Shown here piece after piece: positions 589-19,029 of a DNA stretch of 19,208 bases. Under the pieces are notes generated by a model. It saw only the letters and a program-made list of their open reading frames with translations, was not told the origin of the DNA and ran no database searches. Each line of letters begins with the position of its first letter. Position 1 is the stretch's first letter. The stretch spans positions 1 through 19,208 of the forward strand of contig CAKZHE010000145.1 of the NCBI GenBank assembly GCA_936920195.1, given 5' to 3'. This DNA is from an uncultured cyanobacterium. GTDB lineage: Bacteria > Cyanobacteriota > Cyanobacteriia > Cyanobacteriales > FACHB-T130. A program made the translations under genes and the position numbers.

Positions 589-594
589 GGATAA

Positions 595-630: not shown

Positions 631-636
631 TAGTTT

Positions 637-1374: not shown

Positions 1375-1383
1375 TTGATTTAG

Positions 1384-2384: not shown

Positions 2385-2396
2385 TCCAGGGTAAAC

Positions 2397-2445: not shown

Positions 2446-2490
2446 AACAATATAATTGTGAAGTAAATTTTACTATGAGGACTAATCAAA

Positions 2491-3978: not shown

Positions 3979-3993
3979 ATCATAGAAAATACA

Positions 3994-4036
3994 AGGTGTT
4001 TTTTATGCTATAATTAGGGCTGGCTGAAAAACACCT
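3994..4036 (+). terminator. possible terminator or stem-loop downstream of the island
   Basis: aggtgttttt (3994-4003) pairs with aaaaacacct (4027-4036): perfect 10-bp stem with a ~23-nt loop. The 5' arm ends in a T-run. Confidence 0.25.
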
Positions 4037-4150
4037 GAAAGCCAACCTAGATGCCACACAGCGTGAAAAATAGTGGCTTCGGGGGTTAATTCCCAAATTT
4101 ACCCAGCAATTTCCCAGCAATGTGCAAGGGTTTTGAGGCTATAGATAATT

Positions 4151-4879
4151 TTGAATTTTGAATTGATAACAATGAAGCCATATCAACAAGTTCCCATTGA
4201 AGAATGCCAAGAAGCCTTAGTAGCAATTCCTCTGGAAAAATTTGCCGTTGAGTCGCCCCATCCCTACGAAAAACTGGGTGCGCCCTACGGAGAGAAATCG
4301 CCCTATTATCTCCGTCAAAGCGTCCTCGCGGCTCTTGAGCAAGCTCAAGATAATTTAGCAGAATATCGTCCCGGCTGGCGAATTCAAATTTTTGATGCCT
4401 ATCGCCCGATTGCCGTCCAACAATTTATGGTTGATTATACTTTTAATCAACTTGTCCAGGCTCAGGGACTGAAAATAGCCGAATTAAGTACCCCTCAGCA
4501 ACAAGAGATTCTAGAACAGGTTTATCAATTTTGGGCAGTTCCCAGCCACAACCCTGCTACCCCACCCCCCCACAGTACCGGGGCTGCCATTGATATTACC
4601 TTAGTCGATGGGACAGGCCAACCAGTAGATATGGGTTCAGCGATTGATGAAATTTCGCCCCAATCCCATCCCCACTACTTCGATCAAAAAACTCTGCCCA
4701 AAGAACTGGAATATCGCGATCGCCGTCATCTATTGTGGAAAGTGATGCACTTGGCAGGATTTCAGCGCCACCCCAATGAATGGTGGCATTTTTCCCTGGG
4801 CGATCAAATGTGGGCGTGGCTGTGCCAAAGGGAAAACCCAGCATTTGCAACTGTAGCTCGCTACGGTCGAGTAAAATAG
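4151..4879 (+). CDS. ddpX: D-alanyl-D-alanine dipeptidase (VanX/DdpX, peptidase M15D)
   Basis: 242-aa ORF. VanX family motifs are present: FDAYRP, the zinc-ligand motif HSTGAAIDITLVD, and EWWHFS. The true start may be the internal Met at 4172 (MKPYQQ). Confidence 0.85.
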   Translation: MNFELITMKPYQQVPIEECQEALVAIPLEKFAVESPHPYEKLGAPYGEKSPYYLRQSVLAALEQAQDNLAEYRPGWRIQIFDAYRPIAVQQFMVDYTFNQLVQAQGLKIAELSTPQQQEILEQVYQFWAVPSHNPATPPPHSTGAAIDITLVDGTGQPVDMGSAIDEISPQSHPHYFDQKTLPKELEYRDRRHLLWKVMHLAGFQRHPNEWWHFSLGDQMWAWLCQRENPAFATVARYGRVK

Positions 4880-4912
4880 CTGGATAACTTCAGTGAAATT
4901 AATTTACCCATC

Positions 4913-5281
4913 GTGGCAGCATCCATGCGCGTTTACATCTTGCTATTCAATGCCCGGAAAGAAAACGAAGGTATTCATACCATCCGGATTGGCGATCGCA
5001 ACCGAGTGCTAATGTTCGAGTCAGAAGACGATGCGACTCGTTTTGGTTTAATGTTGGAAGCTCAGGATTTTCCCTGTCCTGAAGTCGAACCAATTGATGC
5101 CGACGAAGTGCGGGAATTTTGCCAAAGTGCTGATTATGAGTGGCAACTTGTGCCAGAAGGCGCTTTAGAGCTACCGCCAGAAACCAATCTGGAAGTAACT
5201 GACTGGCAACCAGAGGTCAAAAAACCAGATTTATCTGATGACCTGGACGACATTCGCCGCCAACTGGAACGATTATTGTAG
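4913..5281 (+). CDS. DUF3110-family protein (conserved in cyanobacteria and plastids)
   Basis: 122-aa ORF. MRVYILLFNARKENEGIHTI matches the DUF3110 N-terminal signature, and the C-terminus is acidic. The probable true start is the Met at 4925. Confidence 0.65.
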   Translation: MAASMRVYILLFNARKENEGIHTIRIGDRNRVLMFESEDDATRFGLMLEAQDFPCPEVEPIDADEVREFCQSADYEWQLVPEGALELPPETNLEVTDWQPEVKKPDLSDDLDDIRRQLERLL

Positions 5282-5298
5282 TACCGAAAAATATAGGC

Positions 5299-6213
5299 AT
5301 GGCAAATCTGGAAGAACGGGGGCATTTGCTGACAGAGCAGATTAATCCCAACAGTCAAAATTTAGATCAACTAACGTCTTTGGAATTAGTCGATCTGTTT
5401 AATCGGGAAGATGCTCAAACTCTAGCAGCGATCGCATCTGCCCGCCATCAGTTAGCCCAAGCCATTGACTTGATTGCCGAGGCACTGCGGCACGGGGGCA
5501 GATTATTTTACATCGGAGCGGGGACTAGCGGACGTTTAGGCGTGTTAGATGCGGCAGAATGTCCGCCGACGTTCTGTTCGCCCCCGGAACTGGTACAGGG
5601 GATTATCGCTGGGGGAGCGGCAGCGCTATTACGCAGTTCCGAAGAGTTGGAAGATAAAGCTGAAGATGGAGCCGCTGCGATCGCCCAAAGGCATATTACC
5701 CAATTAGATGTCGTTGTGGGCATTACTGCTGGGGGAACTACTCCCTATGTCTTGGGAGCCATCCAAGCTGCCCAACAACGGGGAGCCGCTACAGTTTACA
5801 TTGCCTGCGTTCCCGCCGATCAAGTTGCCATCGAAACCGACATTGATATCCGGCTGCTGGTTGGTCCGGAAGTAGTCGCCGGATCGACTCGTCTAAAAGC
5901 CGGAACTGTGACTAAAATGGCTTTGAATATCCTTTCCACCGGGGTCATGGTCAAGTTAGGCAAAGTCTACGGCAATCGGATGGTGGATGTAGCGGTGACA
6001 AATAAAAAGCTTCACGACCGGGCTTTAAGGATGTTACAAGATTTGACCAATCTCAGTCGAGAAGAAGCTGCTTATTTGCTCGAACAAAGCGGCAGATCGG
6101 TAAAATTAGCCTTATTAATGCACTGGACAGGTTTAGGCAAAGAAGAAAGCGATCGCCTACTGACCAAATATCAAGGTAATCTCAGATCTGCTGCCCTAAG
6201 TTATCAAAAATGA
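5299..6213 (+). CDS. murQ: N-acetylmuramic acid 6-phosphate etherase
   Basis: 304-aa ORF. SIS-domain signature RLFYIGAGTSGRLGVLDAAECPPTF. The catalytic-region motifs GSTRLKAGTVTKMALN and LKLALLM are typical of MurQ. Confidence 0.9.
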   Translation: MANLEERGHLLTEQINPNSQNLDQLTSLELVDLFNREDAQTLAAIASARHQLAQAIDLIAEALRHGGRLFYIGAGTSGRLGVLDAAECPPTFCSPPELVQGIIAGGAAALLRSSEELEDKAEDGAAAIAQRHITQLDVVVGITAGGTTPYVLGAIQAAQQRGAATVYIACVPADQVAIETDIDIRLLVGPEVVAGSTRLKAGTVTKMALNILSTGVMVKLGKVYGNRMVDVAVTNKKLHDRALRMLQDLTNLSREEAAYLLEQSGRSVKLALLMHWTGLGKEESDRLLTKYQGNLRSAALSYQK

Positions 6214-6259
6214 AGGTTTGTAAAACTTGAGCCAACCCAATTAGCACCCACAAAAAACT

Positions 6260-6402
6260 CCCTATCTTCCCTATCTTCCCTATCTTCCCTATCTTCCCTA
6301 TCTTCCCTATTCCCCATTCCCTATCTTCCCTGTTCCCTGTTCCCTGTTCCCCGTTCCCTGTTCCCTCTTCCCTGTTCCCTGTTCCCTATTCCTATTCCCT
6401 AT
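6260..6402. repeat. heptanucleotide tandem repeat array (TTCCCTA / TTCCCTG variants; STRR-like), ~20 units
   Basis: Direct reading: ccctatcttccctatcttcc...ccctgttccctgttcc...ccctattcctattccctatt. It lies immediately upstream of the ATG at 6410. The plus strand is polypyrimidine. Confidence 0.9.
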
Positions 6403-6409
6403 TAAAAAA

Positions 6410-7921
6410 ATGTTTACTGCATCAGAAACTACCGCCACAGTTTTAATCGTATTAGTCGCTTTAGGCATTCTCGGTTGGGGCTTTTATCGTGCTAAACCCT
6501 TCGGTAAAATCGGCATCCTAGCCTGGTTGCAATCCGTAGCCCTGATGACTCCCTGGCTATTATTTTTCGGCTTATTTGCCGCCGGAATTTACATCAATTT
6601 AGTTGGCATTCTCTTGCTGCTAATTGTTTCCACTGGTTTGTATATCTTCTTGGGCAGTAAACTGCGAGCCGCTAGTCAAGATTTGGGATTGAGAGAACAG
6701 GTGGCTCGCGCTGTCAGAGAGCGACAAGAATCATCAAATCAACCTACTGAGGCAAGTGCCGCGACAACTCCACCTACAGATCCTCTCAAAGTCGAAGTTG
6801 TGCCAATTCCCGATGAAGATTTGAAAAAGATTCAGGGAATTTTTGGGTTTGAAACCTTTTTTGCTACAGAAACTATACCCTATCAGGATGGGGTGATTTT
6901 TAACGGCAATCTGCGGGGGGAACCAGCAACAGTCTACGAACGACTATCTGCTAGTTTAAAAGAAAGATTGAGCGATCGCTATCGGTTATTCCTGATTCAA
7001 AATCCCGAAGAAAAACCCGTAGTCATTATCCTCCCCAGCAGCAACCAACCTCAACCCAGTACCACTGCTCAAAAAGCTTTAGCCGTAGCTCTTTTCCTGG
7101 CTACCGTACTTACCAGCTTAGAAACAGCCAGTTTTTTACTCGGTTTTAGTTTATTTGATAACTTCAATCGTCTCCCCGAAGCCTTACCCCTAAGCTTAGG
7201 TTTTTGGGTAGTCTTAGCCGCCTACGAAATTGGACGGCGATGGGTAGCCAAACAAGAAAAAGTTAGCCTCAGTTGGCCTTTGTTTATTCCCACCGTTCAA
7301 ATTGGATCTTTTGGAGCCATTGTTCGATTTGAATCCCTGCTCCCCAACCGCAGCACCCTGTTTGATATTGCCCTAGCCGGACCCGCAGCCAGCGCGATTA
7401 TTTCAGTCATCATGTTACTAACTGGCTTATTGCTTTCTCATCCCGGCAGTTTATTTCAGATTCCATCGGAGTTTTTTCAAGGCTCAATTTTAGTTGGCAG
7501 TTTGGCTCGCGTTGTCCTCGGTTCGGCTCTCCATCAAACGATTGTTGATATTCACCCGCTAACTGTAATTGGCTGGTTGGGTTTAGTAATTACCGCCTTA
7601 AACTTAATGCCTGCCGGACAACTGGATGGAGGGCGAATTATCCAAGCTATTTACGGACGAAAAATTGCTCGTCGCTCTACCGTTGCCACCCTAATTATTC
7701 TGGGGATTTTATCATTTGCAAATCCCGGCAATCCTTTAGTTTTATATTGGGCGATTGTCATTCTCTTTTTGCAACGGGATTTAGAACGGCCTAGTTTGAA
7801 TGAACTTTCGGAACCAGATGATGCTAGAGCCGCTTTAGGATTATTAGCATTGTTTTTAACCATTGCCACACTCTTACCCCTAACTCCCGGATTAGCTGGT
7901 CGTCTGGGAATTGGCGGATAA
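6410..7921 (+). CDS. site-2-protease (peptidase M50) family membrane protein, EGY-like, with a degenerate zinc-binding motif
   Basis: 503-aa polytopic ORF. The conserved third motif NLMPAGQLDGGRI (NxxPxxxLDGG) is present. Where HExxH is expected, the sequence reads LAAYEIGRRWVA (H to Y and H to R). Confidence 0.7.
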   Translation: MFTASETTATVLIVLVALGILGWGFYRAKPFGKIGILAWLQSVALMTPWLLFFGLFAAGIYINLVGILLLLIVSTGLYIFLGSKLRAASQDLGLREQVARAVRERQESSNQPTEASAATTPPTDPLKVEVVPIPDEDLKKIQGIFGFETFFATETIPYQDGVIFNGNLRGEPATVYERLSASLKERLSDRYRLFLIQNPEEKPVVIILPSSNQPQPSTTAQKALAVALFLATVLTSLETASFLLGFSLFDNFNRLPEALPLSLGFWVVLAAYEIGRRWVAKQEKVSLSWPLFIPTVQIGSFGAIVRFESLLPNRSTLFDIALAGPAASAIISVIMLLTGLLLSHPGSLFQIPSEFFQGSILVGSLARVVLGSALHQTIVDIHPLTVIGWLGLVITALNLMPAGQLDGGRIIQAIYGRKIARRSTVATLIILGILSFANPGNPLVLYWAIVILFLQRDLERPSLNELSEPDDARAALGLLALFLTIATLLPLTPGLAGRLGIGG

Positions 7922-7929
7922 TATCAATT

Positions 7930-8010
7930 GTAGGTTGGGTTGCGCGACAGCAAAACCCAACAAACTACTTATAAATGTTGGGTTTCCACTGTCGTTCCAA
8001 CCCAACCTAC
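7930..8010. repeat. dispersed hairpin repeat, copy A, present as an imperfect inverted pair (MITE- or terminator-like)
   Basis: gtaggttgggttgcgcgacagcaaaacccaacaaac (7930-7965) is identical over 36 nt to 18978-19013. Its imperfect reverse complement lies at 7977-8010. The unit contains an internal hairpin gttgggtt...aacccaac. Confidence 0.7.
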
Positions 8011-8162
8011 TTTGAGTATTATTGAGATCTGCATCACTAGGCCGAAAGTAAATTATCACTAACCAAACCCCTCTGAAATCCTAGTAAGTCAGGAAAGTCC
8101 CATGAATACTATGAAGTAAAGGGATAATTGCTTTCTCAAGCCCTGCTACTAGAGCCGATTTT

Positions 8163-8744
8163 ATGAATGACTCAGAGTGCCAAGAAGATATCATCGCTGC
8201 CAATGAGGAATCGCTGTTGCAATTGAAGCGATCGCTCATTCTCTCCCAAGGCGATTTTTCGATAATATTGGCTTATTGTCCCTCAAAACGCCTGCGGAAG
8301 CAAATTGCCCAACAGCTACATGAGTCATTAGCGATCGCCATCCAAGATCTTACTCTGCCTCCGTCTGCCCAAACGCTATATACTACAATTTATCATGCTC
8401 TGCCCGAACCCCATCCCGAAGCCTTGATGGTATTTGGTTTAGAGTCTGTGGTCAATATTGAAGAATTGTTAGTTGCCACCAACTTTGTCCGCGACGAGTT
8501 TCGCAAGCAATTTTCTTTTCCCCTAGTTCTGTGGGTTAATCAAGAAATTTTACAAAAAATGATTCGGCTCGCCCCAGATTTTAAGAATTGGACAACCACA
8601 GCGATTCGCTTTGAACGAGTCTGCAATAAAGTAGTGGATTTTCCCCATCGTCCCAGCACCTCAACCAAGAGGAGAAAAAAGGCTAAACATAGTTTACCAC
8701 CAATCCAACGCCGATATGATGACGATCGCCCAATCAGTTTATAG
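8163..8744 (+). CDS. hypothetical protein (193 aa) with a basic C-terminal tail
   Basis: ORF track. Coding-like composition. It is convergent with the 8746..9495 ORF and their stop codons abut. From memory, the motif block GDFSIILAYC...LMVFGLESV...FPLVLWVN...LAPDF resembles an N-terminal module of large cyanobacterial multidomain proteins. This is unverified. Confidence 0.5.
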   Translation: MNDSECQEDIIAANEESLLQLKRSLILSQGDFSIILAYCPSKRLRKQIAQQLHESLAIAIQDLTLPPSAQTLYTTIYHALPEPHPEALMVFGLESVVNIEELLVATNFVRDEFRKQFSFPLVLWVNQEILQKMIRLAPDFKNWTTTAIRFERVCNKVVDFPHRPSTSTKRRKKAKHSLPPIQRRYDDDRPISL

Positions 8745-8745
8745 T

Positions 8746-9495
8746 TTATCGCCTTCTCCGTTTAGTTCTTGTGGGACGTTCTGAGCGATACTCCCGCTCA
8801 TCATCGGGATATTCTAACTGGCGGCTAACTTCAGCAAAAAGATCTCTTCGCAGATAGGGATAGTCGCTTACCCACAAATTACGATCGGGAATATAAATAT
8901 CAGAAGTTTTGACAATGCTGCTGAGATCTCCCCGGTAGGACATAACTAGCATCTCCGCAATTAAACCTGGTGCGATCGCTTTGTGTTCCCGACGCAAAGG
9001 AACTTGCAATTGGGTAGTAAATCCGGTTTCATCTCCTACTTCAATATTCAGCCTGCGTTCGCGATTTTCGACAATTACTAATTGGCCTTTTTTATTAACA
9101 GTTTCTTCTTCCCCAATCAACTCTTCGGTAATGTAGATATCTAAAACTTGACCGCGCCAAAAGCCACTATAGGGGAGTTTGCGATTGCTGGCATTGCGAA
9201 TGCTCGCCCATAATACGGGACCCCACAACCAGTATAAACCAAGAAAAATCCCAATTAAAAATAGGATGCCTTCGGAATCTTCCCCCAAAAATGACCGGAG
9301 CAGCAGCAAAACGACGATCCCGACTACCGAAATCAACAGTCGTTTTAAAAAATCTGGAAATTTCCCCCAATAGAAGGTGTACTGAGGGCCAGTCGCCATC
9401 AGGGGGATAATCTGTTCAAATTTTTTGCGGGTTAAGGGGATGAGCATAAGGCCAGAAGCGACTAAAAAGCCAATAATTTTAATTATAACAAACAC
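8746..9495 (-). CDS. hypothetical membrane protein: 3-4 N-terminal TM helices, a soluble C-terminal domain and an Arg-rich tail
   Basis: 249-aa ORF. Its start lies 22 nt downstream of the GH3 gene stop on the same strand, so it is probably the last gene of the operon. Confidence 0.55.
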   Translation of the reverse strand: MFVIIKIIGFLVASGLMLIPLTRKKFEQIIPLMATGPQYTFYWGKFPDFLKRLLISVVGIVVLLLLRSFLGEDSEGILFLIGIFLGLYWLWGPVLWASIRNASNRKLPYSGFWRGQVLDIYITEELIGEEETVNKKGQLVIVENRERRLNIEVGDETGFTTQLQVPLRREHKAIAPGLIAEMLVMSYRGDLSSIVKTSDIYIPDRNLWVSDYPYLRRDLFAEVSRQLEYPDDEREYRSERPTRTKRRRR

Positions 9496-9517
9496 TTTGT
9501 TGAAAATGACTATCAGT

Positions 9518-11044
9518 TTAAAAAAGGGATTTCAATGTTTGTAGCAGTGTATCATTAATGGGGGTTGCGGTCAAAATTGGATGTTTAATTCCGCCCCAAA
9601 TACTCCCGTTACGAACGCGGTCTAATGCTAAAATTTCAGGAATGCGATCGCCTATCAAAACCTGGGTTGGAGCAAGTTGCTCGAGCAGTCTGGCGCGGCG
9701 ATAGTGGATGGATTGGGATAAGAGATTATCCAAATCTTGAGCAATGATATCTGGGGTTTGGATGGCTGAATCTAGTAACAGGATATAGTGCGGGGGATGG
9801 GCAACGGGAACTAAGGTTTTAAAACAGTTTTCTGGCAAGTTTAATTGATTTAATACCTGATGAACAAAGGTTTCTTGAAGTTTTTCGCCAACTAAATCGC
9901 TAATAGAGCTATCGCGCCCTAGAAATTCTAAGCAAGGAGTGTTGTGATACCAATGGGTGACGCGAATGCGATCGCCAATCCGATAGCGATATAAACCGCC
10001 TTTTTGGGATAGGATAATAGTGTATTCCTGCCCGGTGCTGAGTTCGGGTAATTTGTATAAATTGCCAGCATTATCTTCAAACTCAAAAAAAACTTCATCT
10101 AAAACTGGTACATATCCCTCGGCGGCAATTAAGGGAATTGTCATGGGAGCTTCGGTAGCTAATAAACCTTTGCCTTGAATAAATACGCCGGGAAAGTGCG
10201 ATCGCAGTCCTTTAGCTTGATCGGCGGCATTAGCACTATCCCAACAAGAAATTAGTTTTAAATTTGACCAAAGTTCTGTCCAAGGAATATTAGGCTCTGT
10301 TAGCAGTTGTAGACGATGGGCAGAAAGGCGATCGCGCAATTCTGCTTGTAATAACAGATGATTTTCTTGAATATATTTTAAATGGACTTGCAAAAAACTG
10401 GGACTCCAAACAGAAATAATTTCGAGATTTTCTGCCTGTAATAAGGCTAAACAAAGTTGATGTTTAAACCTTTGGGGATCGCGGAGGCGATTAAGTCCAG
10501 CAGGCATGACTAACCAAGGGCGCAACAGCCACTGCAACCAACTATCTAAATAGTCTAAATCATCTTGCAAAGATAGGGGGCGATCTGCGGAGGAATTGGC
10601 TGAATCTAATTGAGGGGAAATACAAGCATAAAGTTTTCCGGTGGAGAATTTCGGTCCATGTTGAATTAAATCCTGCGCCCAGATACAAAACATCTGGTTA
10701 AATGATTTCCGCAGGGAACGAGTATAGGGAATCCATTTAACTGCCCCGCTACTACCAGAAGTTTTTTCATAAAATAAGATTTGTTCGGGAGTTAGGGGAA
10801 TTTTATTTGGTTTAGAATCAGTTAAAATCCAAGGTTCAATGGTATCATAATTCACAATGGGAACGCGCTGCCAATCGGCAACAGAATTAATTCCCAAGAA
10901 TTGACCATACTGGCTAAAAATTAGGCGATCGCAGATATTTTGTTGGACGGCGGCTTGAGTTAATTCGGGGTGATTGAGGGCTTGCTGAAATCGGCGAGCC
11001 GTTGGGGTGAGAACCTGCCCAAAAAGCTGAATAAACTTCCGCAT
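9518..11044 (-). CDS. GH3-family acyl-acid amido synthetase (adenylate-forming; JAR1/GH3-like)
   Basis: 508-aa ORF. GH3 motifs are present: EKTSGSSGAVKWIPYT (the SSGTxxGxxKxIP box) and GLYRYRIGDRIRV (the YRYxxGD box). Confidence 0.78.
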   Translation of the reverse strand: MRKFIQLFGQVLTPTARRFQQALNHPELTQAAVQQNICDRLIFSQYGQFLGINSVADWQRVPIVNYDTIEPWILTDSKPNKIPLTPEQILFYEKTSGSSGAVKWIPYTRSLRKSFNQMFCIWAQDLIQHGPKFSTGKLYACISPQLDSANSSADRPLSLQDDLDYLDSWLQWLLRPWLVMPAGLNRLRDPQRFKHQLCLALLQAENLEIISVWSPSFLQVHLKYIQENHLLLQAELRDRLSAHRLQLLTEPNIPWTELWSNLKLISCWDSANAADQAKGLRSHFPGVFIQGKGLLATEAPMTIPLIAAEGYVPVLDEVFFEFEDNAGNLYKLPELSTGQEYTIILSQKGGLYRYRIGDRIRVTHWYHNTPCLEFLGRDSSISDLVGEKLQETFVHQVLNQLNLPENCFKTLVPVAHPPHYILLLDSAIQTPDIIAQDLDNLLSQSIHYRRARLLEQLAPTQVLIGDRIPEILALDRVRNGSIWGGIKHPILTATPINDTLLQTLKSLF

Positions 11045-11652
11045 TATTCCACCTTTTCATTAATATAAAGTGTGGTCTGAAATTCTATATAAGCGCGATC
11101 GCCAATTTCTGTTCCTGGACCAAGATGGGAACCCGCACCTAGAAAAACATCATTGCCAACTTTAACTTTTTTCAGATATAACATTAAGTTTTGTTTGCGG
11201 GGTTTGATAATGTGAGAACACATGATCACGCGATGTCCAACCAGAACGCGATCGCCAATTTCTATGAAACCGCGATCGGCAATCTCTAATCCCGGAGTCC
11301 AATAAACATTTTTCCCCACCTTCGCTCCCCAAAGTCGCAACCACCAGGAAAATACCCCTGGAATTAGCCGCAGCACCACCTCTAACGCTGGAATTGCAAT
11401 ATAAATAGCTTGAATTTGATGACTGCCCCACCAAGGGCTATAATCCTTACTTAGCAAATAACTAATTCCCTCCTGGACAGGATAGAAATATTGATGCCAT
11501 CGGTACACTAGCAATGGGAATCCATAGAGAGAAAATAACACAGCCAAAAGACCAAATATACTCTGTGAATGCACCCAATAAACTATTGATGCTCCAGTTA
11601 AAAGTAACACTGAAGCCGGAAAAAACAAAAGAACTTTGCTGAGAAAAGTCAT
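11044..11652 (-). CDS. membrane-anchored hexapeptide-repeat (left-handed beta-helix) acyl/acetyltransferase
   Basis: 202-aa ORF. Two N-terminal TM helices. The C-terminus carries LbH repeats: IGDRVLVG, VGNDVFLGAGSHLGPGTEIGDRAYI. Its start overlaps the GH3 stop by 1 nt. Its stop is 2 nt from the upstream gene. Confidence 0.6.
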   Translation of the reverse strand: MTFLSKVLLFFPASVLLLTGASIVYWVHSQSIFGLLAVLFSLYGFPLLVYRWHQYFYPVQEGISYLLSKDYSPWWGSHQIQAIYIAIPALEVVLRLIPGVFSWWLRLWGAKVGKNVYWTPGLEIADRGFIEIGDRVLVGHRVIMCSHIIKPRKQNLMLYLKKVKVGNDVFLGAGSHLGPGTEIGDRAYIEFQTTLYINEKVE

Positions 11653-11653
11653 A

Positions 11654-12406
11654 TTATTTAAAAGGAAAAAAAAGCTTTTTGGTCAATGTTAGGGGTGTGG
11701 TAATTCCGATTTCTGCTGGCAAATCTTTCCCTGGATAAAATGTCCCATGCCATCTATCCCAGAGTTTAAAGTTAGCCCCATAATTGTAGTAGTGAACGCT
11801 ACAAGCATGATGACGAGCATGATCTTGGGGTAAAATTAGCCAAGGCGAGAGGTAGGAGTAGAGCCAACTATGGGGAGAAATAATCAATCGGCTATGTCGC
11901 CATAAATCCAAGGCTGAAGTTAGGCTAATTCCCAAAAGATAGCCTGTGGAATCAGCGAGTAGATATAAAAACAGGGCATGAATCCACAAATAAATAATTA
12001 AAAAACTTGCCCACAGAGTATTTCTAGATGTGCCGAAAACATCCATTTGAGTAACAGTATGATGAGTTTGATGAACTTGCCAAAACCATCCCCTATGCAA
12101 TAAACGATGATTCCAGTAATACCCATAATCGACTACCACGAAACTGAGGATAAAAGTAAAAATTGGCGATAATTGTAGACATCCCTGTTGAGCAGGCAGT
12201 AAATAATTATAAAGTTGATAAATCAAGGTAATTTGCAGCAGGGGAATTAACATTCCTTGAATAGATAATCCGGTACTATCTAGCAGCCAATCTTGCCAAC
12301 TTTTCGTTTTAAGTTGAGTTCTAGCCACGCGATCGCAGATTGTCCAGATTATCAAGCTCCCAAAAACTATTAAAACTAAAAGTTGGGTAAACATTGGCAT
12401 ATTCAC
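11654..12406 (-). CDS. fatty acid hydroxylase superfamily (sterol desaturase / FA hydroxylase, membrane di-iron) enzyme
   Basis: 250-aa hydrophobic ORF. Three His boxes: HRLLH (HX3H), HQTHH (HX2HH) and HARHH (HX2HH). Confidence 0.8.
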   Translation of the reverse strand: MNMPMFTQLLVLIVFGSLIIWTICDRVARTQLKTKSWQDWLLDSTGLSIQGMLIPLLQITLIYQLYNYLLPAQQGCLQLSPIFTFILSFVVVDYGYYWNHRLLHRGWFWQVHQTHHTVTQMDVFGTSRNTLWASFLIIYLWIHALFLYLLADSTGYLLGISLTSALDLWRHSRLIISPHSWLYSYLSPWLILPQDHARHHACSVHYYNYGANFKLWDRWHGTFYPGKDLPAEIGITTPLTLTKKLFFPFK

Positions 12407-12409
12407 ACC

Positions 12410-13432
12410 TCAAACCCAAAAGGTAACTTTAACTGATTGGTGGGAAAGCGATCGCGGATCTTCTCCAGCAGCGATCGCGTCTCGAATTGATTCGACAAAG
12501 ACATGAATTGTATCTGCTGGAGTATTCTGAAATTTTGTGCCATATTTGGCGATCGCCTCACCCTGAATCCCCAATATTTTCACATCTTGTCCAATAATAT
12601 GTTGTGCCGTCCACCAGACAAACGGACGAGCAAACCAATTCCAAATCCCATAATTATAAGTGACATCTGTATAAACCAAAGTTGTATTATCTGTTTCTGG
12701 AATCGATTGGCTAGTAATCAACAAACGGCGATTTTTTCCCATTTTATATTCCACAGAGGTAATATTGGGCATATAAAAGCGATCGATATGCTCAATCTTA
12801 GTTCCTTGGGCATTGAGAAAACCAGCATACCAACCTAAATTGGTTGTTTCATTCTGATATTCTACCAACACGCTACCATCTTTTCGCTCGACAGTCATCT
12901 CTAGTTTTTGCTTACGAGAAGTCCGAAAAACTCCGGGATGAACAGAAGCCGTATGGGGAATATCAATAAAGTTTTCGGCACAATTAGTCACATTGTTCTG
13001 AAAACGATTAATTACTCGGACTGTTTCCCAACCTGGTTGTCCATAATAAGGCATAGGAAAAGGCGTAAAATCTTCGCTGCTGCTATCGGCTAACCGGACA
13101 TAAACATAGCCATCCTGTTCTTTGGTAGCATAAACCTTGGCTTGCCGATGGGGAGAAGGTTTAAAATTATCACCTTCCGAGGGAACAGCAATTACCTTGC
13201 CATGACTATCATATACCCACCCATGATAAGGACATTGCAAAGCATGATTACAAACTTTTCCCACCGACAAACGGCTATTACGATGCAAACAGCGATCGCG
13301 CAATGCCACAGGTTCGCCATTTTCGCCGCGAAATATTGCCAGCCACTCTCCTAAAACGGTTCTTGCTAGTACCGTCTTTGGTTGCAGTTGTTCGCTCAGT
13401 GCTATAATATACCAGAAATCTTCAAATTTCAT
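12410..13432 (-). CDS. Rieske [2Fe-2S] non-heme iron oxygenase (alpha-subunit-like; KshA/PAO/SxtT-type size)
   Basis: 340-aa ORF. Rieske motif CLH-X16-CPYH (RCLHRN...QCPYHGW). Mononuclear iron motif NCAENFIDIPHTASVHPG (E/N-x2-D-x2-H-x4-H). Confidence 0.8.
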   Translation of the reverse strand: MKFEDFWYIIALSEQLQPKTVLARTVLGEWLAIFRGENGEPVALRDRCLHRNSRLSVGKVCNHALQCPYHGWVYDSHGKVIAVPSEGDNFKPSPHRQAKVYATKEQDGYVYVRLADSSSEDFTPFPMPYYGQPGWETVRVINRFQNNVTNCAENFIDIPHTASVHPGVFRTSRKQKLEMTVERKDGSVLVEYQNETTNLGWYAGFLNAQGTKIEHIDRFYMPNITSVEYKMGKNRRLLITSQSIPETDNTTLVYTDVTYNYGIWNWFARPFVWWTAQHIIGQDVKILGIQGEAIAKYGTKFQNTPADTIHVFVESIRDAIAAGEDPRSLSHQSVKVTFWV

Positions 13433-13477
13433 GCTGGTTAGTTGGCAAAGTCGAAGACAATGATATCATTATAAATT

Positions 13478-13768
13478 ATGACATTACAGGAATTGCAAAA
13501 ACAGGTATTGCATTTACCAATTAGCGATCGCTGTATATCTACTCTTTCTAATGAACGAATTTTAGCACTGACAGAACTAGAAATGGCAGCAGATCAAGAT
13601 GCTCGGTTGAGTGAATTACTCGATCGCCAGCAGGCAGGCATTCTTGCCGAAAATGAGTTTCCAGAGCTACAAATTCTTATGCAGACTTATCAAGAAGGAT
13701 TATTGCGGAAAGCAATTGCCCTCAGTGAAGCTGTTAAACGTGGATTAATTGAACCTTTGAGCCAGTGA
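13478..13768 (+). CDS. hypothetical small protein (96 aa), on the opposite strand in the gap between the ferredoxin and Rieske genes
   Basis: ORF track. It occupies a 374-bp gap with no competing minus-strand ORF. It is helical and Glu/Leu-rich. It weakly resembles small addiction-module / antitoxin-like components (MTLQELQKQVLHLPISDR...). This is unverified. Confidence 0.35.
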   Translation: MTLQELQKQVLHLPISDRCISTLSNERILALTELEMAADQDARLSELLDRQQAGILAENEFPELQILMQTYQEGLLRKAIALSEAVKRGLIEPLSQ

Positions 13769-13806
13769 ATCAGATTTCTGAACAAGTCCGAATACAAGAA
13801 TGTGAT

Positions 13807-14133
13807 TTATTGTTTTATTCGGCGAATTTCAAGATTATTCGTTAGGTTAATTTGGCAGGCTAATCGAGCATTTGGATTTTCGGGATATAATGTATCTAGC
13901 ATCTCTTGTTCATCCGGTTGAGGGGGAGAAATATCGCCAATTACCTCAACCAAACAAGTCCCACAAATTCCCGTTCGGCAACCAAACAATAGCGGTGAAT
14001 TGCGAATATTGAGATGCTCAGATAAATTTTGATGCGCTGACAGAATTACCGGAGGATATTCTGTGCCTGGAAAGTAAATCGTACATTGCTCAGACATGGC
14101 AAAAATTCTCCCGCTCAAACCGTTCAAAAGCAC
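13807..14133 (-). CDS. plant-type [2Fe-2S] ferredoxin (electron donor for the Rieske oxygenases)
   Basis: CX4CX2C...C motif: GCRTGICGTC ... ARLACQ. The likely true start is the internal Met (MSEQCTIYF) at about 14097. That would reduce the overlap with the upstream gene to a few nt. Confidence 0.75.
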   Translation of the reverse strand: MLLNGLSGRIFAMSEQCTIYFPGTEYPPVILSAHQNLSEHLNIRNSPLLFGCRTGICGTCLVEVIGDISPPQPDEQEMLDTLYPENPNARLACQINLTNNLEIRRIKQ

Positions 14134-15301
14134 TCTGTTGTGTTGCCAAATATCGGGGAATGGAATTACCTGCCATTAAAGACATTTCTCGATTCCTTTT
14201 CCACAAATAATCCAATTTTTCGATATAGACTTTATAAGATGCCATCGCCTCTTGATGAGTCAAAAAACTTCGGTGTAACCCTTCCGATTCTTCCAGAAAA
14301 CAGCGCCGCATCATCGCTTTGGCATCTCGATCGCTCATTTCAAAAATAGGCGATCGCAACACCCGATAAATCTTACCATACAGGGCGGGATCGTACCAAA
14401 AAATCCCATTAATCGCCGCTGAAAAGTGAAAATGATCCCGCTGACATCCCAGCAAACCTAAATTAGCTACCAGACTTTCAAAAGCTGTTGGCGGTGCTAA
14501 ACAGGTAATTACATCCTGAGAAACAATTGTGGAACTATTGAAATGAAAGCTTTCATCTAGAAAGTGATAATAAGAAATTTGGGCGGGAATCGGAGCCTGT
14601 TCTTGATGGGGATGCTTTTGATAATAATTACTGAGTTTGTGCTGAACAAGTTTGCCATTCAGAGTTCGCACCCCCCGCACCGTGAAATACTGACAAGCCA
14701 AGAAAGTATTATTGGCAGAAATTAGCCCAAAATACTGTAATTGGATCTTTTTCCACCAGGCTTTTAAGGCATTTGTATCGGCAAATACCATTGTTTCGGT
14801 AAAGGGTCCCCGCATCGGATAAGTGAAAATTAGCTCTCCAAATAAAGCCTGTTCAACCTGTTTAGAAATTGTCCGAAAGGCATTGATATGAGCGCGTTCT
14901 TGGGAGGATTCCAAATCTAACGTATCGCAAATTAATCGAAAGTCTTCCTGGGCATAAAGTCCGGTAGCACTGGTTTGATTAAAGAAAATAGTGGCAATTT
15001 CCGCCGAAACTATTTGGGAATAATATGCCACCCAATAAAGTTGATTTAAAATTACTCGTTGCTGGGGGCTAGCTTGTTCCCATAAAGGCGTACCATAGAG
15101 TAAGGAAAACTCCTCTGGATTCCAATATTCATCCCGGCAATCTTCATACCGAAACTTGCCTACTGTTTCATCCATCAAAGCCGTATGATCTTGTTGCTGG
15201 TTACGGTTGTGGTTAATTTGCAACTTCCGATATACTAGGGAACTACTAGATAATTGAGCAGGAGCTAGTGACATAGAATTAGCTGTTTTTAAAAAACACA
15301 T
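14090..15301 (-). CDS. dimetal-carboxylate (ferritin-like) oxygenase. It is AurF-type N-oxygenase-like, or possibly CylC-type halogenase-like.
   Basis: 403-aa ORF. EXXH motifs at QERAH and DESFH, with upstream carboxylates (SAEIATIFF). It overlaps the upstream ORF by 13 nt. The probable start is Met10 (MSLAPAQ). Confidence 0.5.
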   Translation of the reverse strand: MCFLKTANSMSLAPAQLSSSSLVYRKLQINHNRNQQQDHTALMDETVGKFRYEDCRDEYWNPEEFSLLYGTPLWEQASPQQRVILNQLYWVAYYSQIVSAEIATIFFNQTSATGLYAQEDFRLICDTLDLESSQERAHINAFRTISKQVEQALFGELIFTYPMRGPFTETMVFADTNALKAWWKKIQLQYFGLISANNTFLACQYFTVRGVRTLNGKLVQHKLSNYYQKHPHQEQAPIPAQISYYHFLDESFHFNSSTIVSQDVITCLAPPTAFESLVANLGLLGCQRDHFHFSAAINGIFWYDPALYGKIYRVLRSPIFEMSDRDAKAMMRRCFLEESEGLHRSFLTHQEAMASYKVYIEKLDYLWKRNREMSLMAGNSIPRYLATQQSAFERFERENFCHV

Positions 15302-16191
15302 TGATGAGCAGGTAACGGTTGAAAAGCGCCGCGATTTTCCAGACTTTCTACAATTGATTGTACCGAGTCTCCAACCATGAGCGATCGCAACAGATCCAAT
15401 CTCGTCCGACTATGATTTTCCGTATCCAATTCTTGCAAAATTTGAATCTTCTGCTTCCGGGAAAGATGTCCTTTCACCTGTTCAATTGCCCCCAACACAT
15501 TTTGAGGTCCCACTTGCACCATCAACAAAAACCGTGACAACAAATCAATGATATTTCCTCGACTAGATGGTGACAGGGAAATTTGATGAAACAGAATATT
15601 TCCGGTACTGTGATGTCGCGCTTCTGCTTGCAAAAAACTCCGAAACACCTCTGCCAAAGGTTGATGATGACATTCTTTCGCCAGTCGGCGGTAATGGCTC
15701 AATCCCCATCCTTCCAAAACCACTTGCAGCACAAACAATAATACCGTTTTATCCGCATCTTCAATGACTTCTGCCAGTAAAGATAAAAACGGATCTTGAC
15801 TATTAGTTAGTTCTGATTCTGGACAGAAATAGCTCAAATGACTAAGATGAATAGTTTCATCAGCCGTAAACAATCCATAAAGCATCCGCTCCTCAATTGT
15901 TTCTGCTAGCAATACCATTTTCGCCATATAGCCCACCCCAGCTTTTTCGATGAAATATGCCTCTTCTAAAAGGCTGCGATTGGCAATTTCTACCATCGCC
16001 AATTGTTCGGCTGTACTAGCTTCTTGAAAAATTTTTACTTGGGGCAAATTAAAAAATGAAGCATCCCAATAAGTAGCGGGCAAATTGGGAGAATTTTTGC
16101 TGCCATTCTGATTTGGTAATGCCGCTGCCAGCACTTTCCGCAATCGGTTATCAGCATTGATATGGGGCAAATCAATTTCAAGCATTGGCAA
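15289..16191 (-). CDS. ferritin-like di-iron carboxylate protein (second putative oxygenase)
   Basis: 300-aa ORF. Twin E...EXXH pattern: LEEAYFIEKAG ... ADETIHLSH and VLEGWG ... QAEARHH. It is not ADO and not AcsF (see rejected). Confidence 0.5.
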   Translation of the reverse strand: MPMLEIDLPHINADNRLRKVLAAALPNQNGSKNSPNLPATYWDASFFNLPQVKIFQEASTAEQLAMVEIANRSLLEEAYFIEKAGVGYMAKMVLLAETIEERMLYGLFTADETIHLSHLSYFCPESELTNSQDPFLSLLAEVIEDADKTVLLFVLQVVLEGWGLSHYRRLAKECHHQPLAEVFRSFLQAEARHHSTGNILFHQISLSPSSRGNIIDLLSRFLLMVQVGPQNVLGAIEQVKGHLSRKQKIQILQELDTENHSRTRLDLLRSLMVGDSVQSIVESLENRGAFQPLPAHQCVF

Positions 16192-16197
16192 TCCTAA

Positions 16198-17247
16198 TTA
16201 GTTTTCCGAAAAAGAATGAGAGCGTTCAAGTTTATCCTGGCTTTCAACAGCTTGCCATGTCCCCCAAGTCAGGGCTTTTTGGTGATTAACGTGCTGAATA
16301 AATTGTAAAATTGAGCGATCGGCAATTGTGGGAGTTTTGAGATCGAATTGAATTGTTTGAAATACTTGAGTATCTCCAGTAGCAAAGTAATTTCCTACCT
16401 GCTGAGTTACCCAAAGTAAAAACCGATTCACCGCCCATCCCCAACATCCCAACCGCTTAGGTGTCACCAGAATAGTTTGCCCTTCAGTTTTACCATCCTC
16501 CATCATTCTTAGGGCAAATATAATATAGAAATGCAGAAGATCTGGACCGAGGGTGACAGTTCCCGTACTACCATACCAATAGCACATACTATAGGTAACT
16601 TCCTGACGGTATAGAGGACGAATTAAACGGATTAACCAAGATTCATCTCCTCCCCGCGTAGTATTGCTAAAAGTCACTGCATTAGGATTGAGATCTTGCT
16701 GTTCAAAGACAATTTTCAAAGGTAAATTGTGGACGGTATTAAAGTGATGAGCATCAATGGCATTAATCAGTAAGACATTAGGATGGCAATTTTTAATAAA
16801 GTGAGTTCCCAAAATATAATCGCAATCTATTTCTGCTAATTCCGGAACAAAAGGTAACGAACTTGGCATTTCTTCTCCTGCCCAAACCCAAATCATCCCA
16901 TATTTTTCGGCGGTATGCCAGGTTTTGAGACATACAGGTAAAGGATTTTTTTGTGAGGGAATATCTACACAAATTCCCTGCTCGTTATATTTCCAATTAT
17001 GGAAAAAGCAGCGAATACCATCGCCGTCTACTTTGCCTTCCGCTAGATGAGCGCCCATGTGCGGGCAATAGGCATCTATCGCCACCACTTTACCGCTATT
17101 TCCGCGATAAATGGCTAAGTTTTTGCCTAGTAGCTTCAGGGGTTTAACTTGGCGGATTTTTAATTTTCGGGATGGTAGCGCCCAGTACCATCCCTCAACG
17201 AATTGGCAGGGATTATTGAAGGTGGATTGTGCTATAGTAGAAGACAT
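16198..17247 (-). CDS. Rieske [2Fe-2S] non-heme iron oxygenase, first gene of the cluster
   Basis: 349-aa ORF. Rieske motif CPH-X16-CFFH (YCPHMGAHL...IRCFFHNW). Iron motif NAIDAHHFNTVH (D-x2-H-x4-H). Confidence 0.8.
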   Translation of the reverse strand: MSSTIAQSTFNNPCQFVEGWYWALPSRKLKIRQVKPLKLLGKNLAIYRGNSGKVVAIDAYCPHMGAHLAEGKVDGDGIRCFFHNWKYNEQGICVDIPSQKNPLPVCLKTWHTAEKYGMIWVWAGEEMPSSLPFVPELAEIDCDYILGTHFIKNCHPNVLLINAIDAHHFNTVHNLPLKIVFEQQDLNPNAVTFSNTTRGGDESWLIRLIRPLYRQEVTYSMCYWYGSTGTVTLGPDLLHFYIIFALRMMEDGKTEGQTILVTPKRLGCWGWAVNRFLLWVTQQVGNYFATGDTQVFQTIQFDLKTPTIADRSILQFIQHVNHQKALTWGTWQAVESQDKLERSHSFSEN

Positions 17248-17509
17248 CTCTTTATTTAAAATTTCAATTATACAACAATAGTGATGTGCCTTAACTCAAT
17301 CTATGGCAATGAGCGATCGCCGTCCCATTAAGCAGATACGTCATCCACTCAGAATCCCCGCAACTTTATCGCTGTTATGCGTGCCACAAATTCATCGCCA
17401 CCATCTTCAAAAGGTTCTATTATTTTAAATATAGCGATCGCTTTTAGCAATCTAGCAATGTTACGATGCTGTTACGATCGCATCCAGTTCCGCTATTGAT
17501 GGTTGAAAC

Positions 17510-18946
17510 ATGGATAAAAACAGTCCAGAAAATACCTATCGGCAACAAGTTCTGCAAGAACAAGAAGAAGTTGCTCGTCAGTTGAAAAAAAACAGCATCA
17601 ATGCCCCACAGTCCTTGGCATCGGGGAGTAACATTAGAGGAATTACCCAGACAAATAAAGCGATTGATTATCGCATTACGGGCTTTTGGTTCTGGCGTAG
17701 TGTGGTTGTTCCGCCTAATGTTTATGTGATTCATACCAGACAAGGAAAGAGCGAACCCATCCATATTGGCATGGGCATTTCCTTCCGCTTCAATCCCCTG
17801 AGCGATGCCTTTCTGGTCATCCCCTCCTCCGTACAAACTATCCTAATTAATGCTAATTGTATTTCTATTGAGCGACAAGGGGTATTAGTCCAAGCTTACC
17901 TGCAATGGATTATTGGCGATATCAAAATCGCCTACTGGAAATTGGATTTTTCCGATCCTGGCGATCCGATGGGCATTGTCAATTTGCAACTGAAAGAACA
18001 AGCTGAAGCTGCGATTAAAGATAAAGTTGCTACCATGAGTATTGACGAGATTCTCAGCGATAAACAACCGATTATTGAAGAACTAACTCGTCGGTTGAAA
18101 GCAGTTGCTGAGGGCAGTAGAGAAGACAGCGGGACATCGGGTGGATTAGGGTTGAAAATTGTCACAATTCAGATTAAGGAAGCTGTAGTAAGTTCGACTC
18201 GATTGTGGCAAAATCTGCAAGCTCCTTTTCGTGCCGAAAGAGAAAGATTAGCGCGTCTGGCAGAATTAGCGAGCCATCAAGCGATCGCTGCTCAAGAATT
18301 GGAAAACCAGATTACTTCCCAAAGATCGGAATTAAATGCCCAAAGCGAACTTGAACAACTGCGCTCTGAACAAGATCGCCGGAAGTACGATCGAGAACAG
18401 AGCGAAAATCAGCGCCGTCACTCCCTTGAACAAGAGGCAGCCCGACAAAAACTGATCGAAGAAAATCAAACTATTCAGGCACGTAATGAAGCTAAATTAG
18501 CATTAGTTCTCCAAGAATTAGAGTTGGAAAAACGCAAGATTACCGCAGAAATTGAGCAAGTAGAACAGCAAATGCAGTTAGATGCAGTGGAACGACAAAA
18601 AGAACTGGCAAAAATTACGGCTGAACTGGAAATTAAAGAGAGATATAATTTAGCTGAATTTACCCAGAAGCGAAGGGAATTGGTATTGGCTAAACAACAG
18701 CAGGACATTGAAAACGATCTTTCAGCAACTTATCTACAATCGGAATTAATTGCTAAGTTGCCCGAAATTGCCGAAAACCTGCCGACTGCCCAAGAACAAC
18801 GCACAACCATTATTGCCACTGATGGCAAAGAGGGGGGAGGAATGACGCAATTATTAACTTTTGTTGCCAGCGCCCTGAGTTTAACCCAAAATTTTCTGAG
18901 CCAAGCTAATTCAGGAAATCAAAGTATAGAAAAGGTCGATGAATAA
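17510..18946 (+). CDS. flotillin-like SPFH/band-7 domain protein with a long EA/Q-rich coiled coil
   Basis: 478-aa ORF. SPFH-like N-terminal half (VVVPPNVYVIHTRQGK...). Flotillin-type C-terminus: LIAKLPEIAENLP...TTIIATDG. It lacks the N-terminal TM hairpin typical of FloT. Confidence 0.75.
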   Translation: MDKNSPENTYRQQVLQEQEEVARQLKKNSINAPQSLASGSNIRGITQTNKAIDYRITGFWFWRSVVVPPNVYVIHTRQGKSEPIHIGMGISFRFNPLSDAFLVIPSSVQTILINANCISIERQGVLVQAYLQWIIGDIKIAYWKLDFSDPGDPMGIVNLQLKEQAEAAIKDKVATMSIDEILSDKQPIIEELTRRLKAVAEGSREDSGTSGGLGLKIVTIQIKEAVVSSTRLWQNLQAPFRAERERLARLAELASHQAIAAQELENQITSQRSELNAQSELEQLRSEQDRRKYDREQSENQRRHSLEQEAARQKLIEENQTIQARNEAKLALVLQELELEKRKITAEIEQVEQQMQLDAVERQKELAKITAELEIKERYNLAEFTQKRRELVLAKQQQDIENDLSATYLQSELIAKLPEIAENLPTAQEQRTTIIATDGKEGGGMTQLLTFVASALSLTQNFLSQANSGNQSIEKVDE

Positions 18947-18977
18947 GAAATGAAAAATCAATAACTTCATTATAATC

Positions 18978-19023
18978 GTAGGTTGGGTTGCGCGACAGCA
19001 AAACCCAACAAACCACTTAATCA
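18978..19023. repeat. dispersed hairpin repeat, copy B
   Basis: Identical over 36 nt to 7930-7965, and similar through acttaW. It lies directly downstream of the flotillin stop and just upstream of the IS left end. Confidence 0.7.
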
Positions 19024-19029
19024 AAGCGC

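Follow-up and report, generated by a model that had tools for sequence, protein, structure and literature searches.

A GH3-family amido synthetase, a membrane-anchored LbH acyltransferase and a di-iron hydroxylase form the conserved end of a cyanobacterial oxygenase gene cluster

The 19,208-nt stretch of DNA analysed here (hereafter the window, meaning the whole stretch) comes from an uncultured cyanobacterium (assembly GCA_936920195.1, contig CAKZHE010000145.1, positions 1 to 19,208) and carries on its minus strand three closely packed genes, which encode an integral-membrane di-iron hydroxylase/desaturase, a membrane-anchored acyltransferase with a left-handed beta-helix (LbH) and a GH3-family acyl acid amido synthetase. 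This trio is kept together in cyanobacteria and in other bacteria, pairs of its members occur as natural fusions, and it makes up the 3' part of a co-directional minus-strand cluster of eight genes beginning at 17247. From the protein families and the gene context we suggest, with a probability of roughly 0.4, that the three proteins form a module at the membrane face, in which a lipid acid would be ligated to an amine and then hydroxylated and acylated. The coordinates of the trio and of the cluster are all given in window numbering (Table 1). The window is cyanobacterial in character; HIP1 sites (GCGATCGC) occur in it at a density of 1.67 per kb.

The three products were assigned to their families by Pfam matches (PF04116, 83.6 bits versus a cut-off of 31; Hexapep, 41.9 bits; GH3 N-domain, 91.8 bits; GH3 middle domain, 60.9 bits), the GH3 C-domain scoring 21.9 bits, slightly below its cut-off of 23.6. 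Hydropathy and the structure models predict the hydroxylase and the LbH protein to be membrane proteins, while the GH3 protein has no predicted transmembrane segment. Read directly on the minus strand, the stop codon TAA of the hydroxylase gene (11656-11654) is followed by a single base (11653) and then by the LbH start codon ATG (11652-11650); further on, A11044 is common to the LbH stop codon TAA (11046-11044) and the GH3 start codon ATG (11044-11042), which gives an overlap of 1 nt. A Shine-Dalgarno (SD)-like AAGGTGGA stands within the LbH gene at 11055-11048, immediately ahead of the GH3 start. For the hydroxylase, the public gene call begins at ATG 12400 (248 aa) instead of GTG 12406 (250 aa); this ATG, preceded at a distance of 7 nt by an SD-like GAGGTG, is likely the true start. 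Stop and start codons that abut or overlap are frequent in bacterial operons, so the junctions of the trio are unremarkable by themselves; what exceeds chance is their conservation across genomes. From the geometry of the junctions we infer that the three genes are translationally coupled, and we propose that such tight or overlapping junctions would keep the three proteins co-expressed. A promoter and terminator scan of positions 8500-17600 gave counts no higher than in shuffled sequences.

A scan with the GH3 protein as query, in one genome per species, retrieved 80 loci, all but two of which are cyanobacterial by name; the exceptions are a metagenome-assembled genome (MAG) called 'uncultured bacterium' and a locus labelled Acetobacteraceae (L056). 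When tblastn was used to look for the other cluster genes within 10 kb upstream of GH3, the LbH gene was found in 72 of the 80 genomes and the hydroxylase gene in 70, followed by the genes for a first Rieske oxygenase (Rieske1, 53), a ferredoxin (48), a CylC-like enzyme (46), a second Rieske oxygenase (Rieske2, 45) and a ferritin-like protein (44); the order never varied. A 1-nt gap separates the hydroxylase and LbH genes in the window; of 70 species-level genomes, 56 have the two overlapping by 4 or 1 nt. LbH and GH3 overlap by 1 nt in 50 of 72 genomes, and in 17 of 53 no more than 9 nt lie between Rieske1 and the hydroxylase gene. A second, independent scan took the LbH family as seed and metagenome contigs as target, and yielded another 80 loci. 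Of the 68 that extend far enough, 60 have GH3 within 400 nt downstream of LbH, and the hydroxylase gene precedes LbH within 500 nt in 56 of 69 testable loci. Some of these contigs exceed a GC content of 0.53, have almost no HIP1 and are probably non-cyanobacterial: all of them that could be assessed have GH3 downstream (11/11) and the hydroxylase gene upstream (10/10), at a GH3 identity of 33-45%.

With the LbH sequence as query, 1.8 billion representative proteins were searched exhaustively, which gave 842 relatives (271 below 1e-10), the majority of them stand-alone proteins of 200-230 aa and some of them natural fusions. One relative of 748 aa (P0126) consists of LbH, a short linker and a complete GH3, and its contig has the gene order ferredoxin, Rieske, hydroxylase, LbH-GH3, Rieske, SDR, unknown and SnoaL-like. 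Three others (P0122, P0125 and P0147) are hydroxylase-LbH fusions; that of P0147 was confirmed on the DNA of a contig of 67% GC (L082), which also holds CylC-like, ferredoxin, Rieske and GH3 genes. In a further protein (P0257) LbH is fused to PAP2, and its gene stands beside an AurF-like di-iron gene, an FA_desaturase gene and a SnoaL-like gene. Such sequences support a close functional coupling of the trio proteins, possibly a physical one, and they place the LbH domain and the C-terminus of the hydroxylase on the same side of the membrane as GH3, that is, on the cytoplasmic, ATP-containing side.

These results bear on a preliminary description of the window, made from the letters alone. Its three family calls (FA-hydroxylase, LbH acyltransferase and GH3) are borne out by the Pfam matches, and the tight junctions that it noted are real. 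It had proposed to look for GH3, LbH and PF04116 genes together in other genomes and would have given up its view had they not been conserved together elsewhere; the outcome was strongly positive in the genome and metagenome scans alike. Of the physical or functional complex that it envisaged, the fusions uphold the close functional link and make the physical one possible.

All three GH3 domains (PF03321/PF23571/PF23572) are present in the GH3 orthologues. The AlphaFold2 (AF2) model of the window protein has a mean predicted local distance difference test score (pLDDT) of 82.5, and over its full length it superposes on plant GH3.5, GH3.6, GH3.12 and JAR1 with template-modelling (TM) scores of about 0.80. 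Its 29 best fold matches in the PDB are all plant GH3s (TM up to 0.81, E-values down to 3e-27), with which it shares 15-17% sequence identity. Invariant in 30 orthologues are the P-loop residues T95-S96-G97-S98 together with K103, the stretch G291-A299 (GKGLLATEA), residues Y352, R353, Y354, R355 and G357 of motif 3, YRYRIGD (the Y352-G357 stretch YRYRIG), as well as D383-L389 and K487; D358 of motif 3 is conserved in at least 90%. The adenylation site thus appears intact in alignment and model, within what is predicted to be a two-lobed plant-GH3 fold of the ANL type. ATP-dependent, carrier-free ligation of an acid to an amine is the established chemistry of the GH3 family, and we predict that the protein adenylates a carboxylic acid and then ligates it to an amine. 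Fold and nucleotide-binding motifs are shared with the plant enzymes, from which the protein differs in being about 60-100 residues shorter, in being encoded in a bacterial operon and in being sometimes fused to a membrane acyltransferase.

The only characterised GH3 enzyme from bacteria, OlsH, makes N-acyl-ornithine from a free fatty acid and ATP, which is then O-acylated, and the product of this route is hydroxylated by OlsE, a hydroxylase of the PF04116 superfamily (PMC12493201, PMC12971839). By analogy, the trio resembles the planctomycete set OlsH/OlsI plus OlsE in that a bacterial GH3, an acyltransferase and a PF04116 hydroxylase would act on one lipid in an ATP-dependent, carrier-free way. 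Unlike in the OlsI route, the acyltransferase here is an LbH protein with two transmembrane helices, not an alpha/beta-hydrolase, and there are five extra redox genes; no alpha/beta-hydrolase (OlsI-type) gene is present in the cluster. We reject orthology of our GH3 with OlsH, as it scores 30.2 bits against the 620-bit cut-off of NF052613 and the aligned part is confined to residues 322-395; among 30 orthologues, 29 match the OlsH model, all of them weakly (best E-value 3.5e-12). Orthology of the hydroxylase with OlsE (NF052566) was rejected as well (53 bits versus a cut-off of 475). A 2026 review of ornithine lipids does not include cyanobacterial orders among those that it lists with OlsH homologues.

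The LbH protein has as its best NCBIfam match TIGR02353, the Pls/PosA terminal domain (2e-12; 46 bits versus a cut-off of 423). The match spans residues 37-201, including the transmembrane region, and is shared by 56 of 59 family members; a WcaF-type O-acetyltransferase model is matched by 55 of the 59. In the AF2 model (pLDDT 97.8), transmembrane helices 11-29 and 32-56 are followed by a strand, short helices and a beta-helix that is interrupted by a hairpin. Q81, E91, W104, L105, W108, G109, G113, D126 and R127 are invariant in the family alignment and H147 is nearly so. In a profile alignment, H147 falls on the histidine of the 'GH' motif of the galactoside acetyltransferase LacA, which we take to be the catalytic His115. 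With the maltose, galactoside and WcaF-type O-acetyltransferases the protein shares, besides this histidine, the LbH fold and a conserved W-L-R-x-W-G-x-x-I-G segment before the helix; it differs from them in its two-helix N-terminal anchor, in an extra helical layer and in its partners, which are oxygenases and GH3 and not sugar or polysaccharide genes. The Foldseek matches, to soluble acetyltransferases (MAT/GAT/VCA0836), involve only the beta-helix part, and a fold comparison with the PDB found no solved structure with the architecture of the whole protein.

A further likeness is to the C-terminal polymerisation domain of the epsilon-poly-L-lysine and delta-poly-L-ornithine synthetases (Pls/PosA), for which there is no solved structure. 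According to the PosA paper (PMC10522769), this domain contains three repeats, each made of a transmembrane pair, a strand, two helices and an LbH interrupted by a hairpin. The modelled LbH protein has the same elements, namely two transmembrane helices, a strand, two helices and the left-handed beta-helix; it has one such repeat per polypeptide where Pls/PosA has three in tandem, and no adenylation or thiolation domain is attached to it. In sequence and model it thus resembles a single-repeat relative of the Pls/PosA domain, and it is presumably a homotrimer. The single repeat, the score below cut-off and a cluster that contains no adenylation-thiolation domains led us to reject it as a full member of the Pls/PosA family.

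A very distant LbH relative, 27% identical, occurs in a different cluster on two contigs of 31% GC (L087:5595-12074 and L088). Its neighbours include an FA_desaturase-like gene, a Haem_oxygenas_2 gene (haem-oxygenase-like di-iron), a relative of the ferritin-like protein and a methyltransferase gene, and a 533-aa protein with weak, sub-threshold GNAT-type matches stands in place of GH3.

In the hydroxylase, three hydrophobic segments are predicted, and the histidine boxes of the superfamily, H100/H104, H112/H115/H116 and H196/H199/H200 (HxxxH, HxxHH and HxxHH), are invariant in 68 orthologues.

What the preliminary description missed is that the trio does not stand alone: it is the end of the conserved cluster, whose order is Rieske, ferritin-like di-iron protein, CylC-like di-metal enzyme, ferredoxin, Rieske, hydroxylase, LbH acyltransferase and GH3. 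Both Rieske proteins have the mononuclear-iron motif, which in the translation of Rieske1 reads E-x3-D-x2-H-x4-H. Their nearest solved relatives are alpha-only monooxygenases, SxtDIOX/SxtT, NdmA and DdmC for Rieske1 and KshA for Rieske2. In the CylC-like protein, which is 74-89% identical between genera, E101, E135-x2-H138 and E250-x2-H253 are invariant in 46 orthologues; in the ferritin-like protein, E82, E112-x2-H115, E160 and E190-x2-H193 form an E/ExxH/E/ExxH ligand pattern that is invariant in 44. When the PDB was searched by sequence, neither the ferritin-like nor the CylC-like protein gave a match, nor did the hydroxylase. The ferredoxin is likely the electron donor. The Rieske1 gene of the window ends 9 nt ahead of the hydroxylase ATG and is probably the first gene of a four-gene operon (Rieske1, hydroxylase, LbH and GH3). 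Since the spacer between ferredoxin and Rieske1 varies from -4 to 4365 nt among the 80 loci (L001-L080), with unrelated genes inside, such as one for a pentapeptide-repeat protein in L019, the cluster seems to consist of two operons, the trio lying in the second one behind Rieske1.

Clusters of this kind have been described as orphans. Eusebio et al. (2021, BMC Genomics; PMC8406957) reported 'Rieske-containing' clusters of CylC homologues, product not known, that contain 2-4 Rieske proteins, a protein of the sterol-desaturase family and an acyl transferase, with no substrate activation or carrier protein nearby. They are the most numerous class of CylC-homologue cluster in cyanobacteria (36 of 95) and occur mainly in Nostocales and Oscillatoriales; outside cyanobacteria, homologues of the CylC clade adjoin Rieske and FA-hydroxylase genes. 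The window cluster is the same co-directional block, with one CylC-like, two Rieske, one Fer2, one PF04116 and one Hexapep protein plus the ferritin-like one, and agrees with the gene list of Table S4 of that paper, where the ferritin-like gene corresponds to the 'ferritin-like diiron protein' (sll0265 orthologue). It represents a minimal eight-gene form that is without the DUF962/Mpo1-like gene, the third Rieske gene and the sll0263-like gene of the published clusters, and it has no carrier protein among its genes. Unlike in the published description, GH3 directly follows the acyltransferase gene in most of the genomes examined here; 'GH3' is nowhere mentioned in the text or supplement of PMC8406957, and in literature searches that paired GH3 with cyanobacteria, Rieske, CylC, hexapeptide or hydroxylase, no link of GH3 to this cluster came up. 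While the cluster is already catalogued, the membership of GH3 and the identity of the 'acyl transferase' as a relative of the Pls/PosA repeat appear to be undescribed in the searchable literature.

Under the reading that we prefer, GH3 would adenylate a fatty or lipid-like carboxylic acid at the expense of ATP and join it, without a carrier, to an amine, probably an amino acid; in the published clusters, for which no activating enzyme was reported, GH3 would fill that gap. The membrane di-iron hydroxylase may then put a hydroxyl or a double bond on the lipid, and the LbH protein, as a probable homotrimer with six membrane helices, would acylate that position or an amine by means of its conserved histidine and a putative acyl-thioester donor. 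Both Rieske oxygenases and the CylC-like and ferritin-like enzymes, fed by the ferredoxin, could add further oxidations and possibly halogen. The trio itself would act on the cytoplasmic face of the membrane, building and decorating a lipid amide.

Several neighbourhoods point to a lipid as the substrate. The cluster contains a CylC-like enzyme, and the characterised CylC enzymes use fatty acyl chains (PMC8406957). Genes of the Mpo1-like type (2-hydroxy-fatty-acid dioxygenase family, DUF962) recur in cyanobacterial (L089) and non-cyanobacterial (L161) versions of the cluster, the latter of which also has a CMAS-like methyltransferase; distant LbH relatives adjoin FA_desaturase genes, and one of them is fused to PAP2. 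Finally, that a bacterial GH3 can work on fatty acids is known from OlsH (PMC12493201). The preliminary description had suggested a hydroxylated, acylated conjugate of a lipid with an amino acid or amine: a lipid-type substrate fits this context, and the specific conjugate stays pure inference.

A number of observations weigh against this reading. Substrate, amine acceptor, product and chemistry are all predicted from family membership and gene context. Both OlsH (30 bits versus 620, about 70 residues aligned) and the plant enzymes (15-17% identity) are distant from this GH3 clade, and no ornithine lipids have been identified in cyanobacteria (PMC12971839). In about 10% of the genomes GH3 stands apart from the other cluster genes, for example in Calothrix brevissima NIES-22 (L063), the reference strain of PMC8406957, where it lies elsewhere in the genome; in nine genomes, heterogeneous inserts of 0.7-3.1 kb, mostly on the opposite strand, separate LbH from GH3. 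Co-translation is therefore not obligatory. There are also hints of a polycyclic isoprenoid substrate, in the similarity of the Rieske proteins to SdmA and KshA and in the SDR/3-beta-hydroxysteroid dehydrogenase (3-beta-HSD) and SnoaL-like genes.

These last hints would favour a hopanoid, a sterol-like compound, a carotenoid or another polycyclic or isoprenoid lipid, of which a methyl group would be oxidised stepwise to a carboxylate by the Rieske and di-iron enzymes; GH3 would add an amine to it, and the hydroxylase and LbH protein would add a hydroxyl and esterify it. SdmA, a bacterial sterol 4-beta-methyl monooxygenase, is the best NCBIfam match of both Rieske proteins (about 74 bits), the nearest solved relative of Rieske2, KshA, is a steroid hydroxylase, PF04116 includes sterol desaturases and methyl oxidases, and SDR, 3-beta-HSD-type and SnoaL-like genes, the last with a ketosteroid-isomerase fold, recur in the non-cyanobacterial versions. 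However, the SdmA scores are far under the cut-off of 600 bits and no cyclase or prenyl-pathway genes were seen in the loci inspected, while the CylC-like, Mpo1-like and CMAS-like neighbours and the FA_desaturase and PAP2 context of the distant LbH relatives indicate acyl chains, so that we consider such a substrate unlikely.

Rather improbable, too, is a division of labour in which GH3 makes no more than an acyl- or aminoacyl-adenylate and the LbH trimer transfers it onto a hydroxyl or amine that the hydroxylase has created on a membrane lipid, or else polymerises it, the whole being a carrier-free condensation machine split over several proteins. The TIGR02353 match with its coverage of the transmembrane region, the order of elements in the AF2 model, which is that of a PosA repeat (PMC10522769), the LbH-GH3 fusion and the fact that the Pls domain directly follows an adenylation-thiolation pair would all agree with it. 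On the other hand, the TIGR02353 match is weak and the WcaF-type model fits nearly as many family members; both half-reactions are performed by characterised GH3 enzymes themselves; and the usual donors of LbH acyltransferases are thioesters of coenzyme A or acyl carrier protein. To our knowledge, no LbH acyltransferase accepts acyl-AMP. An extension of this idea would make the LbH protein a free-standing, possibly ancestral Pls/PosA domain, and the product a member of an undescribed class of oxidised, possibly halogenated lipid conjugates in cyanobacteria and some other bacteria; we think it equally doubtful.

Least probable of all, and in our opinion hardly tenable, is a soluble small acid (auxin-like, aromatic or derived from an amino acid) that the oxygenases would produce or modify and GH3 would conjugate, the membrane proteins serving export or unrelated tailoring, since this idea, which draws on the small hormone-like acids used by all solved and most characterised GH3s and on the small polar or aromatic substrates of the nearest solved relatives of Rieske1 (SxtT, NdmA and DdmC), is opposed by the integral-membrane nature of the hydroxylase and the LbH protein, by the natural fusions between these two and with GH3, by the lipid-related CylC-like, Mpo1-like and desaturase context, and by OlsH, which shows that bacterial GH3s can take fatty acids.

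Table 1. Genes and gene junctions of the trio and its surroundings in the window.
Feature	Position	Strand	Remarks
249-aa membrane protein	8746..9495	-	22 nt downstream of GH3; three hydrophobic segments; very basic C-terminal tail
GH3-family acyl acid amido synthetase	9518..11044	-	508 aa, soluble; Pfam GH3 domains
LbH/GH3 stop/start overlap TAATG	11042..11046	-	direct sequence reading
Membrane-anchored LbH (hexapeptide) acyltransferase	11044..11652	-	202 aa; Hexapep Pfam match
Hydroxylase/LbH junction TAA-T-ATG, 1-nt gap	11650..11656	-	direct sequence reading
Integral-membrane di-iron hydroxylase/desaturase (fatty acid hydroxylase / sterol desaturase superfamily)	11654..12406	-	250 aa from GTG; PF04116
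Rieske1, Rieske non-haem iron oxygenase	12410..13432	-	340 aa; Rieske + VanA_C Pfam matches
Plant-type [2Fe-2S] ferredoxin	13807..14097	-	96 aa in public gene call; Fer2 Pfam match
CylC-like dimetal-carboxylate enzyme (halogenase homologue)	14090..15301	-	403 aa; precomputed PF28091 'CylC-like' + weak AurF match
Ferritin-like di-iron protein	15289..16185	-	298-300 aa; no Pfam family
Rieske2, second Rieske oxygenase	16198..17247	-	349 aa; Rieske Pfam match; first cluster gene in window

By eye, the translations of the open reading frames (ORFs) in the inserts between LbH and GH3 resemble PIN/VapC-like toxin-antitoxin pairs and an NDH-2-type oxidoreductase. In some Nostocales (L010, L013, L014, L023 and L080) such ORFs are inserted exactly at the LbH-GH3 junction, and in L014, L023 and L080 a 201-aa ORF without a Pfam family recurs after the LbH gene. 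Being mostly on the opposite strand and different from genome to genome, the inserts were treated as insertions, and we reject the view that they are extra pathway genes. The ferredoxin-Rieske1 spacer of the window (13433-13806) is an insertion hot spot and holds a 96-aa ORF on the opposite strand (13478-13768), which has no Pfam match and no relatives in the other loci.

Downstream of the trio, the 249-aa membrane protein has no Pfam match and is absent beside GH3 in all 80 genome loci; as its position is not conserved, we rejected it as a further member of the trio and regard its place in the cluster as doubtful. A 59% identical relative stands beside a CylC-like gene in a metagenome contig (L147, 2842-3474). 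In a MAG of Leptolyngbyaceae (L076:4104-6131), Rieske2 and the ferritin-like protein form one ORF of 675 aa, with the Rieske domain at 40-121 and a ferritin/AurF-like region at 404-564, which suggests a joint action of these two proteins. In larger versions of the cluster, additional genes recur, namely those for Mpo1-like/DUF962, a third Rieske, SDR, SnoaL-like/DUF4440 and CMAS-like methyltransferase proteins (L089:1207-1626; L161:2605-4755; the P0126 contig; L086; L121:2528-3451); none of these is present in the window. Outside the cluster, positions 1932-3978 of the window have a low GC content (0.35-0.37 versus about 0.42-0.44 elsewhere) and contain two unannotated ORFs of 150 and 495 aa, the longer one with a C-terminal PDZ domain in the public call.

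Phosphate starvation is a condition under which bacteria make phosphorus-free lipids. In Synechocystis PCC 6803, for which orthologues of seven of the eight cluster genes are listed, two of these are reported to be induced by it: ssl2559 and sll1297, the orthologues of the ferredoxin and Rieske1 genes, belong to a transcription unit that is induced 32-fold (PMC4195498). This unit also carries chemotaxis-type genes, and we regard it as a weak additional lead towards a lipid. The CylC-like gene of the same strain, sll0266, decreases under iron deprivation (PMC3516471).

GH3 is conserved as the gene that closes the cluster, and in some cases it is joined to the acyltransferase in one protein; this offers an entry point that consists of one soluble enzyme and one four-gene operon, through which the question of what the Rieske-type CylC clusters make becomes directly testable. 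The 202-aa LbH protein, in turn, is a small and confidently modelled stand-in for the unsolved polymerisation domain of Pls/PosA. If the prediction is true, the GH3 proteins described here would constitute, next to OlsH, the second functional class known among bacterial GH3 enzymes, and the cluster could indicate an unrecognised class of lipids in very well-studied organisms.

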